From positions 16,354 through 80,353 of the forward strand of contig JBJEDE010000033.1 in NCBI GenBank assembly GCA_051871795.1: DNA of 64,000 nucleotides, read 5' to 3'. Every line of letters starts with the position of its first letter. The stretch's first letter is position 1. This document shows positions 53,058-64,000 of the stretch, piece after piece. Below the pieces are notes generated by a model, which made no database searches, had not been told where the DNA came from, and worked only from the letters and a program-made list of their open reading frames with translations. This DNA comes from Muribaculaceae bacterium (GTDB taxonomy: Bacteria; Bacteroidota; Bacteroidia; Bacteroidales; Muribaculaceae). The translations under genes were made by a program, and so were the position numbers.

Positions 53058-55412
53058 TTACTTTTTCAAAACTATTTCAGCCTCGGTGCCGGGCACGTAA
53101 GTGAACGAGAACGTGTCGGGTGCCAACATTCTGACTGCGCTGCTCAGACCGGCTTTGGGGAATGTGCCGGCGCCGAGTACGCGGAATGTAAGGGCGATTT
53201 TTGAGGGAGCGCCGGGGTATGTGCCATTTGAGCTGACTGTGATTTTTACGTTGCCGTCGGTGTCGATAGAACCTTTGAAGGTGATGAGGCGATATTCGCC
53301 TTTTTTCAGGGCATCGGGCGATGTACGGTCATCGTCGTAGAGTGTGTAGGTTGATTCCACGCCTTCTGCGGGGTAAAAGTTGACCGTGAAGCGGTCGGGG
53401 CGGTAGTCGCGGGTCGAATTCATTTTATATTCGGCCATCGGGATGAATGAGCCGGCTTTGACAAAGAGCGGAAGCATGCTCAGAGGGGCAGGATATACGA
53501 CAGTCGAACCTCCGGCGTATTTCTGCGCGGGGTTGGCGAAGTCGACCCATGTGCCTTCGGGGAAAGTGACGGTGCGCTCCACGGCTCCTTTTTCCATCAC
53601 CGGAGCCACGAGCACTTCCGAGCCCCAGAGATACTCGTCGGGGATGCTGTCGTAGCGCGAGCTGCTGCCCGGCTCGCAGAAGTTGAGCGGACGCACCAGA
53701 GGCCAGCCTTTTGTGGCGTTCTCGTAGGCGAGTGTGTAGTTGTAGGGAAGCCAGCGGTAGCGGTCGAGGATGAGTTTTTTGATTATCGGCTGATATTCGG
53801 GATAGTGATAAGGCTCGGCTTTGAACTGAGCGTGGGTGCGGAGCATGGGTGAGAATGTGCCAAGCTGCAGCCAGCGCACATAGAGTTCGGCGTCTTCGGG
53901 ATTGGCGGGGTCGACGGCAAAGCCGCCCACGTCATGTCCCATATATCCCAGTCCGGAGAGACCCGAGTTGAGCATTATCGTGACCTGAGGCTGAAGGCCG
54001 CCCCACGAGCGTGAGACGTCGGTGCTCCATGGGAAGACGCTGTAGCGTTGTAGTCCGATGGTGCCTCCGCGCATCATGGTTATCAGACGGCGGTCGGGAT
54101 ATTCTTTTGCGAAGAGGTCGCTGATGATTTTGCTCCAGTCGTTGCCGTAGATATTGTGATACTGACGTGCGGTGAGGCCGTTGGCGTGTAGTCCGGTTTC
54201 GGGATGCACTTCGGGCTCGCCCAGGTCGCCCCACCAGCCGCCTATGCCCATGTCGGTGAGGAGTTTGTAGCGGTCGGAAAGCCAGCGGCGTGTGTCAGGA
54301 TTCGACACGTCGAACATGCCGCCTTCGCCTACCCATATCTTGACTTCCTGCGGAGCTTTGCCTGTCGAGTCGGCCACGAACATTCCTTTGGGAGCCAGCT
54401 CGTTGTAGTTGTCAATGGCACGGCCGTTGCGCAGCACGTAAGGCTGAGAGATGGCCACGAGATTTACGCCTTTTTTCTTCAGCCGGGCAAGCATTTTTTC
54501 GGGGTCGGGCCATTGCGAGGGCTCCCATTCGAGACGGCCCATGTCTTGCTCCTTGCCGTACCAGTAGAGGTCGAGCACGATGCCGTCGAGCGGGTATCCG
54601 GCCCGCTTGAGTGTGTCGACCACGCCGAGAGTTTCGCGTTGGTCGTGGTAGCCGTATTTAGACGTGATGTAGCCCAGAGTCCACAGCGGAGGCAGAGGCT
54701 GGCGTCCGGTGAGCGACGAGAGACGCTCGGTGACGTCGGCAAGAGTGGAGGCGCCGTTGATGAAGTAGTAGCTCAGGGGACGCGGATTCTCGGTCACGTA
54801 TTCGATTTTGGAATCTTTACCGAGGTAGAGCGTTGCGGCCGCGAAGTCGTCGAAGAGCAATGCGAAGCCGTCGGTAGAGAGGAAGAGGGGCATCGTGATG
54901 TTCATCTGTGAGATGCGGGGGTCGGTCTTGGTGTAGCCGTAGTTCTGACGGTTGTACATCACCAGTGTGTCGCCGCGCAGGTTGAGTTTGTGGCCGCGCT
55001 CGCCGGCGCCGTAATAAGAACCGCGCGAGGTGGTTGATAGCGTGAGCGCCTGCTTGCCGTCTGCGATGGCGCGAGTGCCCGGGTCTGTCACCACTTTGCC
55101 TGCTCCGGCGTTGATTGTGACTTCGCCGTTGGCAGGATTGAGTGTTGCAGTTACTCCGGCAGATGTGATGAGCAGGTCGAGATCGCCGGCGACAGTAATG
55201 CGTGCGTCGGCGTCGGTGTCGGCTTCAAGAGCGGTGACAGTGGGCAGCTGACGCGCTCCGGCGGCTGCATTGGTCACTTTGATGATATTGTCGGTCACTG
55301 CCTCGACGGTCACGGTGCGTCCGTCGGAGAGCGTTTTTTGCAGACGGGGCGTTTCGGCATTGGCGCAGAAAGCTCCGAGTGCGAGGGTGGCTGCTGCAAG
55401 AATATATTTCAT
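53058..55412 (-). CDS. Glycoside hydrolase family 31 (alpha-glucosidase/xylosidase-like), secreted
   Basis: 'GIGGWWGDLGEPE' nucleophile region, 'RYSVFPWSTDVSRSW' and 'GHDVGGF'. Signal peptide. Confidence 0.8.
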   Translation of the reverse strand: MKYILAAATLALGAFCANAETPRLQKTLSDGRTVTVEAVTDNIIKVTNAAAGARQLPTVTALEADTDADARITVAGDLDLLITSAGVTATLNPANGEVTINAGAGKVVTDPGTRAIADGKQALTLSTTSRGSYYGAGERGHKLNLRGDTLVMYNRQNYGYTKTDPRISQMNITMPLFLSTDGFALLFDDFAAATLYLGKDSKIEYVTENPRPLSYYFINGASTLADVTERLSSLTGRQPLPPLWTLGYITSKYGYHDQRETLGVVDTLKRAGYPLDGIVLDLYWYGKEQDMGRLEWEPSQWPDPEKMLARLKKKGVNLVAISQPYVLRNGRAIDNYNELAPKGMFVADSTGKAPQEVKIWVGEGGMFDVSNPDTRRWLSDRYKLLTDMGIGGWWGDLGEPEVHPETGLHANGLTARQYHNIYGNDWSKIISDLFAKEYPDRRLITMMRGGTIGLQRYSVFPWSTDVSRSWGGLQPQVTIMLNSGLSGLGYMGHDVGGFAVDPANPEDAELYVRWLQLGTFSPMLRTHAQFKAEPYHYPEYQPIIKKLILDRYRWLPYNYTLAYENATKGWPLVRPLNFCEPGSSSRYDSIPDEYLWGSEVLVAPVMEKGAVERTVTFPEGTWVDFANPAQKYAGGSTVVYPAPLSMLPLFVKAGSFIPMAEYKMNSTRDYRPDRFTVNFYPAEGVESTYTLYDDDRTSPDALKKGEYRLITFKGSIDTDGNVKITVSSNGTYPGAPSKIALTFRVLGAGTFPKAGLSSAVRMLAPDTFSFTYVPGTEAEIVLKK

Positions 55413-55486
55413 GAATATCGGATATTGAATTTTGAATTTTGAATTGTCGGAGAGATTATGTAGAATGTCGGATGTTGAATGTTGAA

Positions 55487-57235
55487 TCAGGGGTCAACGA
55501 CGTTGAGGTAGCTCTGGACGCTGATTTTGTGGTCGTTGTCGGGGTTGTAGGTGCTTAGACCTGATTTCAGACGCGGTTTTTTGTGTTTGCCGAGGTTGAT
55601 GTGGTTTACGATGTTGGCAAACGAGCGTGAGTCGGCAAGTTTCGGTCCCCAGACATCGATGATGCGGCTGCGGTTTATTGTGTTGAGGTCTTCATAGAGT
55701 CCGCGCAGGTCGGGGAAGCGGTCGAGGGAGTCTTTGTCCCATATTTTGTTGGCGTCGAGATATTCGACGGCTCTCTGCAATCCGGCTGATTTGGCGGCCG
55801 GAGCCGGTGCGGAAACGGGTGCGGGAGCGGCGACGTCGGCAGTTGATTTTGCCGGTGTGCCGGGTTCGGCGGGTCGGTCGGTGGAGGAGGATACGGCGGC
55901 GATGGTGTCGTTATCGGTGGTTTCGGCGCTGTCCGAGCCGGAGCATGTGCATAGGAATGCCAGCAGAGCGCCGATTATGGCGCCGGCGATGCCCCAGACA
56001 ATGTTAATCATCAGGCTCTTGCGCTGGTTGCCGCCGTCGTATACGAGGTGGTTGCTGCGCGAGGGTCCTTCCTGGATGTCGTCGGCCGGCTCGTAGCCGT
56101 CGATGGGGCTGTCGGTAAGTTCGCCCGAGGTGTGGATAGTGAAATGAATCATTCCGGCTATGTCGCTCGACTTGGCCGATATCTCGAAATTGTATACTTT
56201 GCCGCGTTCGCGAAGTTGAATGATAGTCTGCGACGACTGAGCGAGATTGGTGCGTGCCTGATAGGTCTCGTATCCGTCGCAAATGACAGTGAGCTCGGCG
56301 TTGACAAGTTCGGCGTGAGTGAAGTAGCAGCCGTCGGTGATGTCGATGCCGTTGACAAAAATCTGGCATTGCGACGATATGTTGCGGCGTGTCGAGAGCG
56401 ATGTCACGGCAAACGATTTGGGTGTGATGCGCTTCTTTGACTCGCCGGCCGAGGCACATTCGGGTCTGATGCCGATGCTATCGACGGTGACCTGCTGCAC
56501 CATATCCTGAAATCCGGGACGTTTCCACACTATGTCGACCTGCTCGTGCATGGGCACATACATGGTGCGGTCGAAGTGCCGGCCGAACAGGTAAGGCTTG
56601 AAGCCGTCGGGATGCTCTTCGGGCGGGAGCATCTCCACCATCTGCTGCAGCGGGATGTCGGTAAGGTCGGTGCCGGTGCAGTTGATGCCCAGCGAAGCGT
56701 CGACAAGAAGCACGCCGGCAAACGGAAGGTAAGCCGACTGATATAGGTAGACTCCGAGCAGGTCGATGAGCTCGCGGTCGGTGTCGCCTCCGTAGTATCT
56801 GAAAGCGTAATCGTCGCCATGGTTGCTCACGATGCCCGGCGCGTCAGGTGCGGAAGGGTATTCGGTAGAGAATACCGCACGCATTTCGGCCAAGTCGTCG
56901 GCCGAAATGGAAGAACCGGAAATCTTGACTGTCACGAAACGGACCACTTCGAGCAGTTGCTCGGCCTCGATGCGGAGGTCGGCGGGCACGAAGATCCATG
57001 CAGCCACGTGGTCGGCCTTGTGACCTATAATGGTGGAAATCACGCCGATAAGTGTTCCGGTCTCGATGTAGCGCACATAGTAGAATGTGTTTTTCTCCTC
57101 TAAGTCGTAGTCCGGAATCTGCAATGCGCGGCGCACGTCGGCTATGCTGCGCCTGATGTCTTCATCGGGGTTGAGATTGAAGATGTTTTTGTAGTCAGCG
57201 CCCGATCGGTTTATGTATAATTGGAGCTTATTCAT
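55487..57235 (-). CDS. Orphan 582-aa single-pass membrane protein (large N-terminal region, TM, Ala/Pro-rich linker, ~100-aa C-domain)
   Basis: Good ATG and promoter box. No signal peptide. TM 'LMINIVWGIAGAIIGALLAFLC', then 'PAEPGTPAKSTADVAAPAPVSAPAPAAK'. I recognise no family. Confidence 0.65.
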   Translation of the reverse strand: MNKLQLYINRSGADYKNIFNLNPDEDIRRSIADVRRALQIPDYDLEEKNTFYYVRYIETGTLIGVISTIIGHKADHVAAWIFVPADLRIEAEQLLEVVRFVTVKISGSSISADDLAEMRAVFSTEYPSAPDAPGIVSNHGDDYAFRYYGGDTDRELIDLLGVYLYQSAYLPFAGVLLVDASLGINCTGTDLTDIPLQQMVEMLPPEEHPDGFKPYLFGRHFDRTMYVPMHEQVDIVWKRPGFQDMVQQVTVDSIGIRPECASAGESKKRITPKSFAVTSLSTRRNISSQCQIFVNGIDITDGCYFTHAELVNAELTVICDGYETYQARTNLAQSSQTIIQLRERGKVYNFEISAKSSDIAGMIHFTIHTSGELTDSPIDGYEPADDIQEGPSRSNHLVYDGGNQRKSLMINIVWGIAGAIIGALLAFLCTCSGSDSAETTDNDTIAAVSSSTDRPAEPGTPAKSTADVAAPAPVSAPAPAAKSAGLQRAVEYLDANKIWDKDSLDRFPDLRGLYEDLNTINRSRIIDVWGPKLADSRSFANIVNHINLGKHKKPRLKSGLSTYNPDNDHKISVQSYLNVVDP

Positions 57236-57255
57236 CGTTTGCAGTTTTTATCCTA

Positions 57256-57263
57256 CAAATTTA
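57256..57263 (-). promoter_or_regulatory. -7 promoter box (TAAATTTG)
   Basis: TAnnTTTG, 21 nt upstream of the ATG at 57235. Confidence 0.5.
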
Positions 57264-57516
57264 CGCCAAATCATTGACATTTCATGCTTTTTTGCGAAAA
57301 AAGTTGTTTCGGACATCAACCTTTCTCAATCCGGGGGCGTTATAATTGCGAAATAAGAAAAAGATCAGAGTAATATTTCACCCTGCAGATTGACATAAAG
57401 GACGCGCAGGCGGTAGAAACCGCACATGATGCACCCGACACACTATGAAAAGCACACGTCATGCGTATGAAATCGACGCAGCTCCGTCCAAAGCAATGAA
57501 ACCTTGGTTTCAGCAC

Positions 57517-57558
57517 AAAAACAGCCGTTTATCCCCTCAGAGGTAAACGGCTGTTTTT
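57517..57558. terminator. Strong rho-independent terminator downstream of the KilA-N gene
   Basis: aaaa-ACAGCCGTTTA-tcccctcagagg-TAAACGGCTGT-tttt. Confidence 0.8.
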
Positions 57559-57598
57559 GAAGGCTTCCGGCCATATAAGTATGACTATCTATACACAA

Positions 57599-58414
57599 TT
57601 ATTTCAATAGTTTTCTATCGTTGTTGCCGCTCTCCAAGATGCTCATCTGATGGATTGCGATTTGGTTCAGCTTCACGAGCCGCTCGCTTTGCGTCATTCC
57701 TTGCTCGATGAAAACAGCATTGAGGTTTTCCATATTCGACAGGCAGATAAGTTCGTTGATAGTAGCATAGTCGCGAATATTCCCTTTGAGGTCCGGATTG
57801 GCCTCGCGCCATTGCTTTGCCGTCACACCGAACATCGCCACATTCAGCACATCGGCTTCGTTGGCGTAGATGATGCTCGCCTGAGCTGGAGTAACCTCCG
57901 CAGGGACAAGGTTCTGCTTTATGGCATCGGTGTGTATAAGGTAGTTGATTTTCGACAACTCACGTTTCGCCGACCATCCCAACAACCGCTGTTCCTCAGC
58001 CTTTAACCTCTGAAATTCCTCTATAAGATATAATTTGAACGGCACACTTATGGCAGACCCGAATTCAAAGGCTATATCCTTGTGTGCATAGGTGCCTCCA
58101 TACCGACCTTTCTTTACTATTATGCCGATTGCATTCGTGCGCTCTATCCATTCTGATGCGCTCAAAACAAAAGAAGGCAAACCTGCGCTCATTTTAAAGT
58201 GGTCAAATTCGACCACTTTAAAATGAGGGTTATGAATCACCTCCCAGGTGCCAAGAAATTCAATTGTGTAGCGGTTTCGTAACCAGTTCTTGATTATGTC
58301 GGCGGAGCGGTTATCTCCCTCTTTGGCCGTAGCCATATCAGTGAGAGATATATAATCCTGTTTCTCTACCGAGAGAATAGTGATAGGTGTGTTTTGAACT
58401 GTAATCTTTGCCAT
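57599..58414 (-). CDS. KilA-N domain-containing protein
   Basis: 271 aa. 'YISLTDMATAKEG...IKNWLRNRYTIEFLGTWE...GGTYAHKDIAFEFGSAISVPFKLYLI' is the KilA-N DNA-binding fold pattern common in Bacteroidales mobile DNA. AT-rich. Confidence 0.75.
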   Translation of the reverse strand: MAKITVQNTPITILSVEKQDYISLTDMATAKEGDNRSADIIKNWLRNRYTIEFLGTWEVIHNPHFKVVEFDHFKMSAGLPSFVLSASEWIERTNAIGIIVKKGRYGGTYAHKDIAFEFGSAISVPFKLYLIEEFQRLKAEEQRLLGWSAKRELSKINYLIHTDAIKQNLVPAEVTPAQASIIYANEADVLNVAMFGVTAKQWREANPDLKGNIRDYATINELICLSNMENLNAVFIEQGMTQSERLVKLNQIAIHQMSILESGNNDRKLLK

Positions 58415-58505
58415 TGTTTCAGATACGGTCTATATGCCAATACGCTAAGTTACACATTTTCGCTGACATCCGGCGTATTCCCTTGAAATTTAGTCTCTTT
58501 GTTGT

Positions 58506-60260
58506 TTAGTTATAAATGTTGCTGAAAAACGTCCATGCGCCTGCCGCGACAATTAATATCAATATTATGTATACAAGGACTCGGAGACATGATTCTTTCT
58601 TTTCCTCGGGTGTGGTGTTATCGCCTTCCTCGGATGTCGTGTTATCGTCTTCCGCGGGTGTCGTGTTGACGTCTTGGATATGAGTCGTGATGAAGAAGGG
58701 AAATACGGCCGACTCTACGCCGTTGATTGTGAAGCGTATGGCGTAACGTCCGTTTGGTAAGGGAGAGCGGTTGAATTTGAGCCTGTTCAGTTCGAGAGTG
58801 CCGGAGCTGCTGACGCGGTGGTTGACTGTTTCAGAGCATTGCACCTGATGCAAGGAGCCTATTGAATATGTGTATATCTTATAAGAAATTTCGACCACGT
58901 CGACAGCCGATGCAAGGGTGTAGCTGATGCGCGGTTCGATGTAGGAGGGCAGAGGCTCGGGCGCGTAAGTCTCTCCGTCTGCGCCTTTGCGGTCGGCAGG
59001 GTCATGGAAGAAGTCCACGTCGGTGATTGTCAGCGGCGAGACTGATGATATGGGTCTCTTGACACTGAATGTTTTGCTCGTGCGTTTGCCCTCGCCCCAG
59101 AGTATTTCGATGCGCCAAGAGCCTTCGGTCAGAAAAGCTGTGCCTTGTTCCGAACCTATGGCTTTGAGCCGCACGGTGTCGCCTTTGATAAACGAGACTG
59201 TCTGCATTGCGGTGAATCCGCCCTCTCTTCCGGCGGGGGCTATCATGTTGCCGTTAGGGTCGCAGACTTTGATTCTGAGCTTCACGTCGCGGCGCGTCAC
59301 CGCAGGTGAAGAGGAGAAAATTTCGATTACGGGGGTGATGTATTGCGTAGTGGTTGTCGTCGTCCGTTGAGTGGGATTGCCGTCGGCGTCGCCGGCGATG
59401 ATGTCGGTGATGCGTATGCTGATGTCCGACAAGCCGGAGTCGGCCGCCGGGGTGATGTCAAATTCTTTGGTGAGATGCAGCCTGCCGTTGGCATATACGA
59501 GCATTTTGTAATGGCCGGCGGCCAACATCGCACAGTTGCCGAAGGGATTGAGAGTCAGACTGCCGCTGCCGCTCTCGGCGGTACACTCGTTGACGCTGAT
59601 GGCAACTTCTGTGCCCGTAGCCTTGACCAGCCGGCAGGTGATTTTCCACTTCGAGCCCACGACAGTTGTGCGGTAGCTGACGGTAGGGCGGAGCATTTCG
59701 GTGCCCTGTGGTACGGCGGCGCACGATGAGCTCAACACCGAGCCTCGCCGGTTGAGGATATCGATGCCGGCGTCGTTGATTTGCAGTATCGGACGCCCTC
59801 CGGCCGGTGGAGGCGGAGGAGGCGTCGAGGGACCTGATGATGTGTTGTTGTCTGATGGCGTATGTGTCTGAGTGCGCTGATTATCTCGCGGAGCGGCATT
59901 TCGGTCTGAGCCCGAGCCCCCGGGATCGGCATTGCGTTGGCCGCCTGCGTTGCCCGATTGGGGAAACCGCAGCAGCAGCTCGGTGCGGAACTGCCGGTAA
60001 TCGGCCTCGTTCACGGTGTAGATATTTGCCGCCACGCCTCGGAAACGCTGGATTTGTGTCTTGAGGTCGGGGAGGTTGCCGTGGCGCTCGTCGTTGCGCA
60101 CGAGCACGTCGATTTGCTTGTCGGCCCGGCGTGAAAGCTCTTCCGAAAATTCGTTGTCGCGCCATGCGTTGTTGAGAAAATCAAACGCGGCGCCCTCCTC
60201 GGCCGAAAGTTGCTTGCGGCATTTGTCGATGTAGGCCGACGAGGAGAGCCAATGCTCCAT
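58506..60260 (-). CDS. 584-aa tail-anchored protein of unknown function, immediately downstream of the Hsp70 paralog
   Basis: Start set at MEHWLSS (60260), because the ORF-track extension overlaps the Hsp70 C-terminus. Order of parts: helical N-domain, Gly/Pro/Asn-rich spacer (PPPPPP), repeated beta-rich modules, acidic Thr-rich spacer, one C-terminal TM 'VLVYIILILIVAAGAWTFF'. Confidence 0.7.
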   Translation of the reverse strand: MEHWLSSSAYIDKCRKQLSAEEGAAFDFLNNAWRDNEFSEELSRRADKQIDVLVRNDERHGNLPDLKTQIQRFRGVAANIYTVNEADYRQFRTELLLRFPQSGNAGGQRNADPGGSGSDRNAAPRDNQRTQTHTPSDNNTSSGPSTPPPPPPAGGRPILQINDAGIDILNRRGSVLSSSCAAVPQGTEMLRPTVSYRTTVVGSKWKITCRLVKATGTEVAISVNECTAESGSGSLTLNPFGNCAMLAAGHYKMLVYANGRLHLTKEFDITPAADSGLSDISIRITDIIAGDADGNPTQRTTTTTTQYITPVIEIFSSSPAVTRRDVKLRIKVCDPNGNMIAPAGREGGFTAMQTVSFIKGDTVRLKAIGSEQGTAFLTEGSWRIEILWGEGKRTSKTFSVKRPISSVSPLTITDVDFFHDPADRKGADGETYAPEPLPSYIEPRISYTLASAVDVVEISYKIYTYSIGSLHQVQCSETVNHRVSSSGTLELNRLKFNRSPLPNGRYAIRFTINGVESAVFPFFITTHIQDVNTTPAEDDNTTSEEGDNTTPEEKKESCLRVLVYIILILIVAAGAWTFFSNIYN

Positions 60261-60342
60261 TTTTATTTTGAAAATCCTTGGATTCACAGTCGAAAGGTTG
60301 AGAGTGAGCGGATAGTGAGCGGATGTAGGAGCTGCCGGAGCG

Positions 60343-61908
60343 TTACTGTATGTTGTAGTTGTCGAAACCGGCGCGTTTCGAGTCGATTTCGGCGCGGGTG
60401 CGCACACCGTTGATGTGGAGCACGAAGTCGAGACGGTCGTTGTCGACGCAGGCCGTGACGGAGAGCACGCCTTCCGCATCGATGGTGAAGGTGACTATGA
60501 CAGGAGTCTGTGCCGGCCATTTTTTAGTGAGCCGGAGCGCGTGATCGTCGATGAGGGTGCAGTATCTGTCGTCGACGATTGCGCCGGAAGCGGGGTCGGT
60601 GAAGTCGCTTTCGAAGACTTTCATCGACACGGCAGCCTGATTGTCGGTTGTGGTGTAGAATGTGAGTTTCTGCGACACCGGGAGAGTGGTGTTGGCAAAA
60701 ATCATGTTGCGCACTTTTTTCCCTTCCATGTCGGTGCCGTAGGTTTTGGATGTCACGTTCACCACGTTCATGCCGTCGGTTGCCGACATGGGGGTGTCGT
60801 TGTCGGGCGAAGCGGCTGATGACTCTTCTTCGAGTTTATATTTCGCGAAAAGGGCGGCGCCTTTTGCCACGCACTGATTGGGGTCGGAGAATCTGGCGTC
60901 GACGTCAAACTCGGCGTCGACTCTCGTTTTGACCTGCGGCATGAGCGACGAACCGCCTACAAGCAGAAACTCGTCGATGTGCCCGTAGCCTTTCTTCTCG
61001 GCTATTTCGAGAGTCTTGCGGGTGTAGTTGACAGTCTCTTCGAGCAGGCTTTCGGTGAGAGCGTCGAAGAGCTCGCGGTCAAATTCAATCTTTGCCGGAC
61101 GGCCCTCGTACTGGAAGTTGGCGCGGGTCGACATTCTTGCCGTGAGGCGTTTTTTTTGTTCTTCGGCGATGTTGAGGAAGAAATTGCGTACGGCTGGCTC
61201 GTCGATAGAGTATGAGGTGGAGTTTTTCTCGTTGAAGACATCGAGGAGAAATTTGGCAAGCTCCATGTCCCAGTCTGTGCCTCCGAGGTGGTGGTTTCCT
61301 CCGGTTGCGATGACGCGTATCGAGTTGCCCTCGACGCGGATGATGGTGACGTCGAAAGTGCCTCCGCCGAGGTCGTAGACAAGCACGGTCTTTTGGTCGC
61401 CGGTGCGCACGCCGTAGGCTATTGCGGCCGCCGTGGGCTCGTTGATAACAGCGAGGACGTTGAGACCGGCCAGTTCGCCGGCCTGTCGGGTCTGCAGCCG
61501 GGCTTTCTGTCCGAAGTAGGCCGGGCAGGTGATGACGACGTTGGTGGTGGGCTGCTCGCACTGTCCTTGCGAATTGGCGTCGTTGACGAGCTTTCGGAGG
61601 ATGAATGATGAAATTTCGGCCGGGTCGTAGCCGTATGGCAGGCCGTTGCGGGTCTTGTCGAAGTCGGCGTCGACGCCCATGCGCCGTTTCACTAAGGCTA
61701 CGGTGTTTTGCGGGTCGATGGCGAGCATGCTTTTGGCCTCTTTGCCGACGATGATGTCGGTTTGTGATTCGAAATACACTACCGACGGCGTGGTGGACTC
61801 GCCTTCGAGACTTTCGAGTACCATAGGCTGCCCGTATTTGTCGAGTTGGGCTATGCAGCTGTAGGTTGTGCCCAGGTCGATTCCGTAGACTGCTTGTGCG
61901 TTATCCAT
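60343..61908 (-). CDS. Non-canonical Hsp70-family ATPase (NBD plus beta-sandwich SBD, no helical lid)
   Basis: 521 aa. 'YGIDLGTTYSCIA', 'VLVYDLGGGTFDV', 'LLVGGSSLMPQV' and SBD-beta-like 'VIVTFTIDAEGVLSVTA'. Confidence 0.85.
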   Translation of the reverse strand: MDNAQAVYGIDLGTTYSCIAQLDKYGQPMVLESLEGESTTPSVVYFESQTDIIVGKEAKSMLAIDPQNTVALVKRRMGVDADFDKTRNGLPYGYDPAEISSFILRKLVNDANSQGQCEQPTTNVVITCPAYFGQKARLQTRQAGELAGLNVLAVINEPTAAAIAYGVRTGDQKTVLVYDLGGGTFDVTIIRVEGNSIRVIATGGNHHLGGTDWDMELAKFLLDVFNEKNSTSYSIDEPAVRNFFLNIAEEQKKRLTARMSTRANFQYEGRPAKIEFDRELFDALTESLLEETVNYTRKTLEIAEKKGYGHIDEFLLVGGSSLMPQVKTRVDAEFDVDARFSDPNQCVAKGAALFAKYKLEEESSAASPDNDTPMSATDGMNVVNVTSKTYGTDMEGKKVRNMIFANTTLPVSQKLTFYTTTDNQAAVSMKVFESDFTDPASGAIVDDRYCTLIDDHALRLTKKWPAQTPVIVTFTIDAEGVLSVTACVDNDRLDFVLHINGVRTRAEIDSKRAGFDNYNIQ

Positions 61909-62133
61909 GGGGTTGATAGATTGAGAGGAATGCGTCAGGGCGGTCTTTTTCTGCCGCTTTCAGCAAATGAAGCGAGGAATAGAGATTATGACTGTTGCGC
62001 GCTTTATTGTCCGAAGCATGACAGAGGTTCTGACCGCCTTGATGCAGGTAAGATATAAAATTAAGATTATTTACAGATCATTGACGTTGGCCGGCCGGAG
62101 CCGGGAGCAGATTGTTGAGGTGGGTATTGCTGT

Positions 62134-62430
62134 TCAGAATATCACTTTGGTTGTCTTGCCGCCGCGGCGCATGATGTAAATGCCCGATTCGGGATTCTCG
62201 ACGCGGATGCCTTGCAGATTGTAATATTCCGCTTTGTCGTTATCGTCGGCTTCGACAGCTCCGATGCCGGTAGTGTCCACTTTGAGACATTCAATTTTGA
62301 TGTTGTTGAGACGCCGTTGTCAGCGACTGTTTCTTCTGTGATTACGGGATTGGGCAGCCATACCACAGCGTTGGCGCCTAAGAGACCGCCAAGAAGCATT
62401 GAGGCGGCGAGAAGTAATTTTTTTCTTCAT
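62134..62430 (-). pseudogene. Frame-disrupted remnant of a small T9SS-cargo gene (signal peptide plus T9SS CTD)
   Basis: ATG followed by an A7 run. The signal peptide 'LLLAASMLLGGLLGANA' is in frame 2. The CTD 'EYYNLQGIRVENPESGIYIMRRGGKTTKVIF*' is in frame 1, after a frame-1 TGA. Confidence 0.6.
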
Positions 62431-62662
62431 TGATTTTTGATTGGTTATTGTAACTATTGGATTGAAATCTTTAAATGTAGTGTCGGCACTTGCCTTTGTC
62501 ACGGTAATGTCCGAATTCAGGAGCGGTAAGTGAGGAGAAAAGTCATAATTACCGATTATTCAGCAAATTTAGTGATTTTTATGCTGGTTTAGTTGTATTT
62601 GTCAATTAAAAATTGTTAATCGCGGCTGTTGTGACGATTTGTCGGTTGATTCTGAGAGCGTG

Positions 62663-63229
62663 TCAGGATTTGCTGAGCTTGTATACGGTTACAGTGGCTT
62701 GACGCAGTATTTTCCCGTTTTGCCCGGAATAGTATCCGTGAGCAACCGCCGATGCGATTTTTCCATCAAGCGTAGCATCGTCGGTAGGGACTGACTGTAC
62801 GCAATTGTGCTTCGCACGGTCGAATCGTTCCATCGGTAGCGGCATTATTGCCGTGGTATTGAAGTCTTCGGCAAGAATGTCGGTGACGAACTCGGAGAGA
62901 TACTCCACTTGCTGCATAAGTCGGTCATATTCAGGATTGTCGAGCACGATAGTGTCGGAGCTGTCGCTTTGGAGCTGTTTGACGCGAGTGTCGATTTTGA
63001 TTATGGCCTGCAGCAGAGTGTTACGCAGTTCGGCAATCATATTGTTGCGCATCTCGCTCATGTCGGCGTGGAGATTTCGGATTGTCTCGTCCTTTGCGAT
63101 TGACTTTTGCAGCATTTGCTCGATTCTGTCGAGACGGGAGGCAATTGCGTCGTCACGCTGTGTGTCGGTCTGAGTTGCTGAAGCTGTCGCTGAAATGTCG
63201 GAAGAGGGTATGTTTTGATTGGTTTCCAT
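62663..63229 (-). CDS. Divergent GrpE-like nucleotide-exchange factor
   Basis: 188 aa from METNQ. Long N-terminal helix, then 'ERFDRAKHNCVQSVPTDDATLDGKIASAVAHGYYSGQNGKILRQATVTVYK', which follows the GrpE C-terminal pattern (FDP..HEA....G.I..V...GY.....LRPA.V.V). Confidence 0.6.
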   Translation of the reverse strand: METNQNIPSSDISATASATQTDTQRDDAIASRLDRIEQMLQKSIAKDETIRNLHADMSEMRNNMIAELRNTLLQAIIKIDTRVKQLQSDSSDTIVLDNPEYDRLMQQVEYLSEFVTDILAEDFNTTAIMPLPMERFDRAKHNCVQSVPTDDATLDGKIASAVAHGYYSGQNGKILRQATVTVYKLSKS

Positions 63230-63252
63230 ATGCGCAACATTGAATTTTGCAC

Positions 63253-63260
63253 CAAAGATA
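63253..63260 (-). promoter_or_regulatory. -7 promoter box (TATCTTTG) for the GrpE-like gene
   Basis: TAnnTTTG, 24 nt upstream of the ATG at 63229. Confidence 0.45.
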
Positions 63261-63306
63261 AAGAAAATATTCGATATATGCAACAGTCTGCAACTTTGCA
63301 GCCTAA

Positions 63307-63338
63307 GAGCCGGTTCGACAATAAATGTTAACGTCAGG
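63307..63338 (-). repeat. Copy 3 of the 32-bp repeat (cctgacgTtaacatttattgtcgaaccggctc), flanked by TTA
   Basis: 31/32 identical to 14152-14183. It lies 156 bp 3' of the transposase stop, in the same orientation. Confidence 0.9.
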
Positions 63339-63493
63339 GCGGTCAATCGTTGAGTGATTTTTCTTTAGCTCTTGAGGGAGCGATGGGGTTCCATCGTGAC
63401 CGAAAGAGATGAAGGAAAGCGCCAACGAGTGGCCGGGGTGAAGGTAACTTACGTCCCGTCAAATAAATATGTGAAGCATAATATGGCAGTTGG

Positions 63494-64000
63494 TCAACAG
63501 TAGCGGAGCATAAAAAGTATCGCGGCAAGATTTGTCATTGCCCGTGCAGACGACAGACAGCGTTCGTAATTCCGGCATAGTCGCCGATAGTTTTCGGGCC
63601 ATGAGTCAGTACGTTCCACCACCCGACGGCCTGACAGGGGGCGAACTTCCGCTGTGCCGGAATTGGATTTCACACATTCGACGATGCATCCGTCAAGTCC
63701 GGAACCGACATCACAATATCCTTTGTCCGCTTTGACCAAAGACACTGATTGATAGTATAACCGCATATCTTTCAATAGCAGATACACGCCTTTCACTTTC
63801 TTGAAGCCATCAACTCCCTTTTGTGACTGCGCATATCCTGAACGGACGCTCCGGCTGTCGGTGACGACGACTGTAGGCCGTGGCTTTCGCCCCGTCTTGC
63901 GGCGAACTTCCGCAACCGGCCTGCGCAGAAAAAACACGAGATTTGTCGATTCGCTCCACTTGCGGAAATGGTAATATACAGTAGCGGGCGGTGGATAATA
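63494..64000 (-). mobile_element. IS5-family (DDE_Tnp_1) transposase gene, C-terminal ~168 codons; the ORF continues past the window end
   Basis: 'YPPPATVYYHFRKW', 'VVVTDSRSVRS...GFKKVKG', 'ADKGY' and 'RRVVERTDSWPENYRRLCRNYERCLSSARAMTNLAAILFMLRY' match IS5-family transposases. The 'M' at 63937 in the ORF track is an internal GTG, and the frame stays open to 64000. Confidence 0.8.

Follow-up and report, generated by a model that had tools for sequence, protein, structure and literature searches.

Three adjacent genes on the minus strand of a 64,000-nucleotide (nt) stretch of DNA from a Muribaculaceae bacterium (GenBank assembly GCA_051871795.1, contig JBJEDE010000033.1, positions 16,354 to 80,353; this whole stretch is hereafter called the window) encode a GrpE-like nucleotide exchange factor, an Hsp70 without the helical lid and a membrane protein, referred to here as the partner, which begins with a conserved helical domain (the N-domain). 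Judging from gene order and conservation, the three genes are a chromosomal, vertically conserved operon of Bacteroidales, and there is about an even chance that their products form a dedicated Hsp70/GrpE machine that is tethered at the inner membrane, docks through the N-domain and serves an envelope task. To our knowledge, all Hsp70 systems studied to date need a J-domain that couples substrate binding to ATP hydrolysis. Reviews distinguish only DnaK, HscA and HscC among prokaryotic Hsp70 types (PMC8215388), other DnaK derivatives have been termed unexplored "dark matter" (PMC13580251), and literature searches found no description of a Bacteroidales module composed of an Hsp70, a GrpE and an N-domain protein.

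The loci compared with the window were picked by two motifs of the Hsp70 substrate domain only, with one genome per GTDB species, and their flanks were searched with hidden Markov models (HMMs) built from the window's family. Among the 32 Bacteroidales loci thus obtained, all 30 that have upstream sequence carry the GrpE-like gene immediately 5' of the short Hsp70 gene, at a distance of 4–64 nt, and an N-domain membrane protein is encoded directly downstream in 29 of the 32 species loci, with a gap of 0–221 nt. The first-pass annotation of this DNA had raised the question of whether the three genes travel together, and these counts answer it in the affirmative. The triad was seen in metagenome-assembled genomes (MAGs) of Prevotella, Rikenellaceae, Bacteroidaceae, Muribaculaceae, Butyricimonas, Barnesiella and Alistipes, and Hsp70 relatives of 510–543 amino acids (aa), 51–80% identical to that of the window, are abundant in gut Bacteroidales metagenome bins, where the named ones come from MAGs and are annotated merely as "Hsp70 family protein". 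The gene order in six of these relatives is GrpE-like, short Hsp70 and a large protein (521–835 aa) without a Pfam match. One Prevotella MAG (L044:6121-9301) carries two tandem short Hsp70 copies between the GrpE-like gene and the partner gene.

The Hsp70 matches PF00012 with an E value of 8e-97 over profile positions 1–487 of 599, and it is because the match stops there that the lid is regarded as missing, in agreement with the earlier description of an Hsp70 with an intact ATPase and a beta-sandwich that ends where the lid would begin. When 120 family representatives were aligned to Escherichia coli DnaK, whose numbering is used hereafter, all of them were found to stop at about residue 525, past the first helix after the beta-sandwich. 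The catalytic residues K70, P143, E171 and T199 are invariant in this set and, therefore, ATP hydrolysis should work; the protein is a lidless ATPase with an intact active site and a peptide-binding beta-sandwich. In the substrate domain, F426, Q433, V436 and P419 are largely retained and the arch residue M404 is not conserved.

Superfamily membership is clear from PF00012, whereas none of the three recognized prokaryotic classes accommodates the protein. It reaches 319.5 bits against the DnaK equivalog NF001413 of NCBIfam (cut-off 648) and 313.9 bits against TIGR02350 (cut-off 822.55), and the exchange factor gives 16–25 bits against the NCBIfam GrpE equivalogs (cut-offs 164–194; best, 25.3 vs. 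172), so that a housekeeping DnaK/GrpE identity was rejected and the initial view of the two as specialized paralogues is sustained. An HscA identity was likewise discarded, with 299.4 bits against TIGR01991 (cut-off 708.55) and no isc genes nearby. HscC, taken here as a class of 550–580 aa with a shortened lid, DjlB and DjlC as cognate J-proteins and no GrpE partner, differs in length from this family, and the identity to it is 31–32%, compared with 33% to E. coli DnaK; a GrpE gene always adjoins the Hsp70 gene, and HscC membership was rejected on these grounds and on its separate position in the tree. This rough neighbour-joining distance tree, which carries no bootstrap support values, places DnaK, HscA and HscC apart from the Bacteroidales proteins (32–35% identity) and groups the latter with short GrpE-linked Hsp70s of Lachnospiraceae, Oscillospiraceae, Actinobacteria, Planctomycetes and Methanomassiliicoccales (36–42% identity). 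These relatives outside Bacteroidales also lack R167 and Q378.

Both residues belong to the surface that in DnaK binds J-domains, which, on the evidence of the 120-sequence alignment, is remodelled in the Bacteroidales family. With the list of DnaK residues that touch the HPD motif and helix II of the J-domain taken from Mayer (2021, PMC8215388), R167 is replaced by A, G or S and is never R, Q378 is replaced by Y or F, D211 falls within a deleted loop, E217 has become K or R in 118 representatives, E206 is never E, and the position of D477 is acidic in just 43. Altogether, at five of the six positions whose side chains contact the J-domain, the DnaK residue has been lost or its charge reversed in every or almost every representative. 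P419 and the hydrophobic linker (VVNV vs. VLLL in DnaK) are still present. Moreover, the K414–D326 clamp is gone on both sides (K414 to A and D326 to I) and D393 is replaced by N and, therefore, the allosteric wiring of this Hsp70 is unlike that of DnaK.

The product of the upstream gene matches PF01025 with 44.5 bits (cut-off 25.8) over profile positions 22–165 of 165, and the profile of its family matches the GrpE structures 4ANI (E 1e-6) and 1DKG (E 1e-4) from end to end. These matches bear out the earlier GrpE-like assignment and indicate that it is a true but fast-evolving GrpE homologue. Its pace can be gauged from the syntenic locus L003, which is aligned with the window through the genes of a GH31 glycosidase, riboflavin synthase (RibE) and DedA; identity amounts to 75–85% for these flanking proteins and 79% for the Hsp70, and to only 43% for the GrpE-like protein and 39% for the partner. 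By this comparison, the GrpE-like protein and the partner evolve about three times faster than the Hsp70 and the flanking proteins.

The partner was originally read as a tail-anchored protein of 584 aa. Its membrane anchor stands, and its start was probably placed too far downstream, because the nine codons 5' of that ATG are conserved in homologues; translation from the GTG would give a protein of 593 aa beginning MNPRIFKIKMEHW. The full-length AlphaFold model, with a mean predicted local distance difference test (pLDDT) of 71, consists of the helical N-domain, a disordered Pro-rich linker (residues 104–164, pLDDT below 50), three beta-sandwich domains and a C-terminal transmembrane helix, which both hydropathy and the model place one residue before the end of the protein. 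In Foldseek, the beta-sandwiches resemble tandem macroglobulin/immunoglobulin (MG/Ig) arrays such as those of complement C5, CD109 and alpha-2-macroglobulin (E about 1e-10). The absence of a signal peptide implies that the N-domain faces the cytoplasm and, together with the helix at the extreme C-terminus, makes the protein tail-anchored, although this holds for its own clade only and most homologues are bitopic or polytopic.

Across the partner families, only the first ~105 residues align. The near-invariant residues W13, E31, L38 and H69 (W4, E22, L29 and H60 when counted from the ATG) lie in this N-domain, which is modelled as five helices with a pLDDT of 92 and in which the conserved His immediately precedes the loop joining helices 3 and 4. 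Neither the N-domain nor the full window partner belongs to a Pfam family, the latter showing a weak match to DUF6941 that remains below the cut-off. Word-indexed protein searches recovered only five proteins with the partner as query and two with the N-domain alignment, and the family was assembled from the genome loci and from an exhaustive profile search of 1.84 billion representative proteins, which, with a comparatively shallow alignment, found the N-domain in 117 clusters only. The N-domain thus appears to be a new domain family as far as the searched libraries show. It stands nearly always at residue 1, and some clades have two copies. The one clear exception in position is a 638-aa protein (P0228) with a protein-kinase domain in front of the N-domain.

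What follows the N-domain varies widely. Simple hydropathy calls predict at least one transmembrane helix in 80 of 94 long homologues, the commonest form being a single mid-protein helix followed by 200–500 residues. When 76 of these homologues were scanned with Pfam, SH3_3 was found in 33, MORN in 17, TonB_C in six, Sel1 in four and FKBP_C in three, and YARHG, CD225 and thioredoxin-type families each turned up once or twice; SH3_3 comes directly after the transmembrane helix, and TonB_C, FKBP, AhpC/TSA, Sel1 or YARHG domains are found further along. In general, then, the partners are predicted to have their N-domain in the cytoplasm, followed by a membrane anchor and, in most lineages, by a periplasmic module for wall or outer-membrane binding or for folding catalysis. 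A 969-aa protein (P0130) contains two N-domains and about five transmembrane helices, followed by SH3_3, FKBP and an AhpC/TSA thioredoxin-like domain, folding catalysts that would act beyond the membrane. In three loci (L010:11043-13976, L011 and L014), a second N-domain protein is encoded after the first partner; that of L010 has 977 aa, several transmembrane helices and weak matches to DUF2914 and HupH_C. Some genomes could therefore offer one Hsp70 two alternative adaptors.

The same architecture bears on the view that the partner is the client of the Hsp70/GrpE pair, which would insert, hold, assemble or disassemble this membrane protein and recognize it through the N-domain or the Pro-rich linker, as DnaK helps the tail-anchored DjlC into the membrane or as Hsp70s control oligomeric scaffolds. 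The strict adjacency of the genes would fit, as would the long disordered linker, an extended segment of the kind bound by Hsp70 substrate domains, and the tandem beta-sandwich arrays, which could assemble; moreover, tail-anchored proteins such as the window partner are a class that needs DnaK in E. coli (Mayer 2021, PMC8215388). However, most homologues are not tail-anchored, and the element that is conserved is a folded helical domain and not an extended peptide, whereas the client-like regions (linker, beta domains and periplasmic parts) vary freely. An entire Hsp70/GrpE pair for one client would also be unusual, and this account is considered unlikely.

No J-domain could be detected near the triad. 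Pfam found no PF00226 in the five open reading frames (ORFs) from 55487 to 63229, and a J-domain HMM gave no match within 10 kb on either side of any Bacteroidales locus, as had been noted when the neighbouring ORFs were first inspected. The only HPD tripeptide then noticed, in the motif EEHPDGF, lies in a protein without a Pfam match and was correctly placed outside a J-domain context. Furthermore, the 64-kb window holds no further Hsp70, GrpE or DnaJ, and the 25 Pfam families that the 76 partners match most often, out of 27 in all, do not include PF00226. A cryptic J-domain in the N-domain of the partner was rejected, since it has no Pfam or J-HMM match, its hhalign probability against a J-domain alignment that included DjlB and DjlC is 1.2%, and Foldseek detects no similarity; the N-domain has no match at E<=0.001 in PDB or BFVD, no J-domain occurs among the PDB matches listed, and a few BAG-domain chains at E>1 with a TM score of about 0.25 are not meaningful. 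The conserved His is not followed by Pro-Asp, and the model has five helices as opposed to the four of the J fold. At Firmicutes loci, weak J-like HMM matches were obtained, and the N-termini of Firmicutes and Actinobacteria partners are J-like in look but have no HPD; kinship of the N-domain with them was rejected (hhalign probability <=1%).

These results also bear on an ordinary Hsp70 triad, in which the J-protein would be encoded elsewhere and the downstream membrane protein would be merely co-located or a minor accessory. Related short Hsp70s have been reported with DnaJ-fused neighbours (PMC7159879), and this Hsp70 still has P419 and the hydrophobic linker, which J-domains make use of. 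Nevertheless, the N-domain protein keeps its adjacency in nearly all species loci across family-level divergence, the J-domain contacts are lost or reversed almost throughout the family, and the N-domain occurs in almost no other context, since nearly all of its clusters share the same architecture. An ordinary triad is considered improbable.

The surroundings of the triad are those of a chromosomal locus. The housekeeping flanks vary by carrier and include PFK and ClpB, DMRL synthase, Suf genes, or transketolase and OmpA, and no member of the Hsp70 family was found on the viral contigs searched or among the plasmids of PLSDB, where the best identity is 37.5%. They have to be weighed against the idea that the triad is a pared-down conflict system, anti-phage or similar, in which Hsp70/GrpE would act as a nucleoside triphosphate-dependent sensor or threshold and the membrane protein as the effector, akin to the Hsp70-GrpE theme of the GAP1-N2 GTPase-centric systems (Kaur et al. 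2020, PMC7159879). In the rough tree, the nearest Hsp70s outside Bacteroidales are the GrpE-linked short proteins of Lachnospiraceae, Oscillospiraceae and Actinobacteria (40–42% identity), of which the actinobacterial members adjoin DO-GTPase2 and GAP1-N2 genes and the Lachnospiraceae members two Ser/Thr kinases; in addition, the rapid evolution of the GrpE-like protein and the partner and the highly variable C-terminal ends of the partners, including multi-pass and CD225 forms, would suit a conflict role. However, neither the Hsp70 nor the partner has a match in PADLOC-DB 2.0 and that of the GrpE-like protein is at chance level only (E 0.036), no GTPase, GAP1 or recognizable toxic effector turned up among the genes of the window and of those Bacteroidales loci that were inspected, and the neighbours are housekeeping genes and not defence islands. 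The role of the GAP1-N2 systems is itself a prediction.

A conflict or defence role had at first seemed plausible because of a KilA-N gene and an IS5 element beside the triad, a suggestion that did not survive the comparison with L003, in which the slot of the KilA-N gene holds an Fe-ADH gene; the KilA-N neighbour is therefore incidental. This comparison does not reach the IS5 side, because the window ends too near the IS5 fragment. With no family member found on viral contigs or plasmids and the candidate defence neighbour missing from the syntenic locus, a conflict system is judged quite unlikely.

In the proposed membrane-tethered machine, the N-domain would be a docking or co-chaperone element that recruits the Hsp70 to the membrane, and it may trigger or gate the ATPase, standing in the place that the J-domain of DjlB/DjlC takes with HscC, and the GrpE-like protein would reset the Hsp70 cycle. 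The variable remainder of the partner would place the machine or couple it to the envelope and thereby determine where, or on what, it acts. In the clade of the window, this remainder would consist of cytoplasmic beta-sandwich repeats and, in most others, of a helix and a periplasmic SH3_3 domain with TonB_C, FKBP, thioredoxin-like, Sel1 or YARHG domains. Given the FKBP, thioredoxin-like, TonB_C and SH3_3 domains on the periplasmic side, a task in the envelope seems more likely than general folding; the machine would probably remodel membrane or exported proteins or control their quality, or signal the state of the envelope.

Several points weigh against this proposal. A J-protein encoded elsewhere in the genome, for instance the housekeeping DnaJ, may serve the Hsp70, and the loss of R167 is no proof of J-independence because relatives without R167 have been reported beside DnaJ fusions. 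In addition, three of the 32 loci (L025, L042 and L043) have the Hsp70 and GrpE genes without a recognizable partner downstream, and every carrier seen is an uncultured MAG.

A bolder version, in which the N-domain represents a new class of co-chaperone that replaces the J-domain, and a J-independent Hsp70/GrpE cycle is wired through one membrane-spanning protein to periplasmic modules for peptidoglycan or outer-membrane binding or for folding catalysis (SH3_3, TonB_C, FKBP and thioredoxin-like), is a tentative idea that is probably wrong; if true, cytoplasmic ATP would drive or report envelope events in Bacteroidales. If the N-domain drives or tethers the cycle, it would constitute a second way of controlling an Hsp70 and would connect chaperone activity in the cytoplasm with the envelope of bacteria that form a dominant group in the gut. 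Even with a distant J-protein, the three proteins would make up a testable system and a new domain family would have been defined. The module is, in any case, a compact and widely conserved case: it has lost the lid and changed the surface for J-docking, retains a GrpE of its own and carries a new domain in the position of the J-domain.

Table 1. Features of the Hsp70/GrpE/partner locus, in positions of the window.
Feature	Positions	Strand	Basis
GrpE-like nucleotide exchange factor, 188 aa, short N-terminal coiled-coil variant	62663-63229	minus	PF01025, synteny
Lidless Hsp70, 521 aa: nucleotide-binding domain, linker, beta-sandwich and one terminal helix	60343-61908	minus	PF00012
Hsp70 nucleotide-binding domain, residues 1-~356, with remodelled J-domain docking surface	60841-61908	minus	Alignment, 120 representatives
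Hsp70 substrate-binding beta-sandwich, residues ~384-487	60448-60759	minus	DnaK alignment
Partner protein, tail-anchored, probably 593 aa from GTG 60287 (584 aa from ATG 60260)	58506-60287	minus	ORF list, start context, homologues
Partner N-terminal five-helix domain (new as far as libraries show), residues 1-107	59967-60287	minus	AlphaFold, cross-family alignment
Three tandem beta-sandwich (Ig/FN3/macroglobulin-like) domains, partner residues 168-533	58689-59786	minus	AlphaFold, Foldseek
Partner C-terminal transmembrane tail anchor, residues 567-592	58512-58589	minus	Hydropathy and AlphaFold
Bacteroidales-type promoter -7 box TATCTTTG, 24 nt 5' of the GrpE-like ATG	63253-63260	minus	Consensus match only

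The layout of the locus departs in some respects from the first description (Table 1). The GrpE-like gene had been placed 1.2 kb upstream of the Hsp70 gene; the distance from its stop to the Hsp70 start is ~755 nt, compared with 4–122 nt at other loci, and this unusual gap exists because a small gene, now decayed, was inserted there. The promoter box attributed to the GrpE-like gene was found, albeit as a consensus match only, since the pattern TANNTTTG (TAnnTTTG) has 36 matches in the window and 22.5 are expected by chance. Similarly, a G+C content described as host-like applies to the Hsp70 and partner genes (0.56–0.59) but not to the GrpE-like gene, which, together with the KilA-N gene, has 0.46–0.50. 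A scan for sigma-70 promoters and terminators gave counts only at chance level, and an Rfam scan of 55000-64000 returned nothing credible.

The decayed small gene (62134-62430, minus strand) is frameshifted. Its ATG is followed by an A7 tract, and a one-base shift at this tract restores a textbook signal peptide, MKKKLLLAASMLLGGLLGANA; the final 48 codons lie in another frame and end in a tail of the form YYNLQG...GIYI...KV, which weakly matches a type IX secretion system sorting domain (Por_Secre_tail, E 0.11). The 48-aa ORF was also called in two independent assemblies (L001 and L002), and a promoter-like box, TAAATTTG, is located upstream of the gene at 62564-62571.

Among the other neighbours, the KilA-N gene (57599-58414, minus strand) matches the PADLOC candidate defence family PDC-S22 nearly from end to end (E 2.5e-131) and lies in a stretch of low G+C (0.46), so that a candidate defence element consisting of one gene seems to have been inserted here recently. 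The IS5-family transposase fragment (63494-63937, minus strand) covers only the C-terminal third of its model, with 35.5 bits against a cut-off of 110, and is located just upstream of the promoter-like box of the module, the window ending 63 nt past it. A 582-aa protein (55487-57235, minus strand), encoded next to the GH31 gene, contains a transmembrane helix in its middle part and a linker rich in Ala and Pro, lacks a Pfam match and is 67% identical in its closest relatives; it was rejected as a fourth component, as it occurs only in the close relatives L001, L003 and L004.

Among known systems, E. coli HscC with DjlB and DjlC offers an apt comparison for the architecture, as was proposed at the outset, since DjlB and DjlC consist of an N-terminal J-domain and a C-terminal transmembrane tail. 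In both, a specialized and shortened Hsp70 goes with a partner of its own, whose N-terminal domain faces the Hsp70 and whose C-terminus forms a transmembrane tail anchor. The nucleotide-binding domains of the two Hsp70s also have three deletions in common, one each in lobe I, the D211 loop and the "GrpE signature" segment. HscC is, however, no closer to the Bacteroidales family than DnaK or HscA, and it retains a short lid, R167, Q378, E206 and E217, which this family does not. HscC is thought not to use GrpE (Mayer 2021, PMC8215388), whereas the Bacteroidales Hsp70 always has its own. DjlB and DjlC also carry a recognizable J-domain with an HPE motif, in contrast with the Bacteroidales partner, which has none.

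The MxDnaK2 protein of Myxococcus xanthus is full length and works with J-domain proteins. It resembles the present case as a second, specialized Hsp70 with its own upstream grpE paralogue, differing in that it has no N-domain membrane partner and belongs to another phylum. The gene (SglK, MXAN_6671) is co-transcribed with the grpE paralogue MXAN_6672 directly upstream, and the protein is retrieved by the DnaK model PRK00290 (PMC11019930).

Among the Hsp70 and GrpE proteins of other groups, those most closely related to the Bacteroidales pair belong to the GAP1-N2 systems (Kaur, Burroughs, Iyer and Aravind 2020, PMC7159879). These systems lie near the membrane, frequently have SH3 domains and include a protein of beta-sandwich (FNIII) repeats with an Hsp70-facing N-terminal domain, and their type of short Hsp70 is reported beside DnaJ-fused proteins. 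Their Hsp70-GrpE theme has not been reported from Bacteroidetes (PMC7159879). GAP1-N2 and DO-type GTPase genes are present in the actinobacterial relative L073; the Bacteroidales module, in contrast, has no GAP1, DO-GTPase, tubulin or kinase, its N-domain is neither a DnaJ nor a TPR domain, and membership of these systems was rejected because no such Pfam matches occur in the window or in the Bacteroidales gene tables. Lachnospiraceae loci (L046:4711-13141, L049, L052 and others) have a different conserved cluster, composed of two Ser/Thr kinases, a GrpE-like protein, a short Hsp70 (~551 aa), a 140-aa membrane protein and a ~680-aa protein ending in SH3_3, whose J-like N-terminus has a Trp at the HPD position and a weak hhalign J-domain probability of 2.6%. 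In Methanomassiliicoccales, which are gut methanogenic archaea (L055, L060-L062 and L068), a short GrpE-linked Hsp70 of the same broad clade was found; at some loci a full-length gene of the DnaK type lies only a few kb away, a hint that genes may have passed between the bacteria and archaea of the gut.

None of HscC with DjlB/DjlC, MxDnaK2 and the GAP1-N2 systems has the Bacteroidales N-domain. In the mitochondrial import motor (mtHsp70/Mge1/Tim44), an Hsp70 and a GrpE-type factor are held at the membrane by a tether that is not a J-protein, and the J-protein Pam18 is also needed; Tim44 is unrelated in sequence and the direction and purpose of protein import differ, so that this is an analogy only. 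Finally, like the DnaK–DnaJ–GrpE system, the module combines an Hsp70 fold whose catalytic residues are all present and its beta-sandwich substrate domain with an exchange factor of the GrpE type, and it departs from that system in having neither lid nor DnaJ, in scoring far below the equivalog cut-offs, in its remodelled J-docking surface and allosteric clamp, and in a partner that is a membrane protein with a domain of its own, apparently new, kind.

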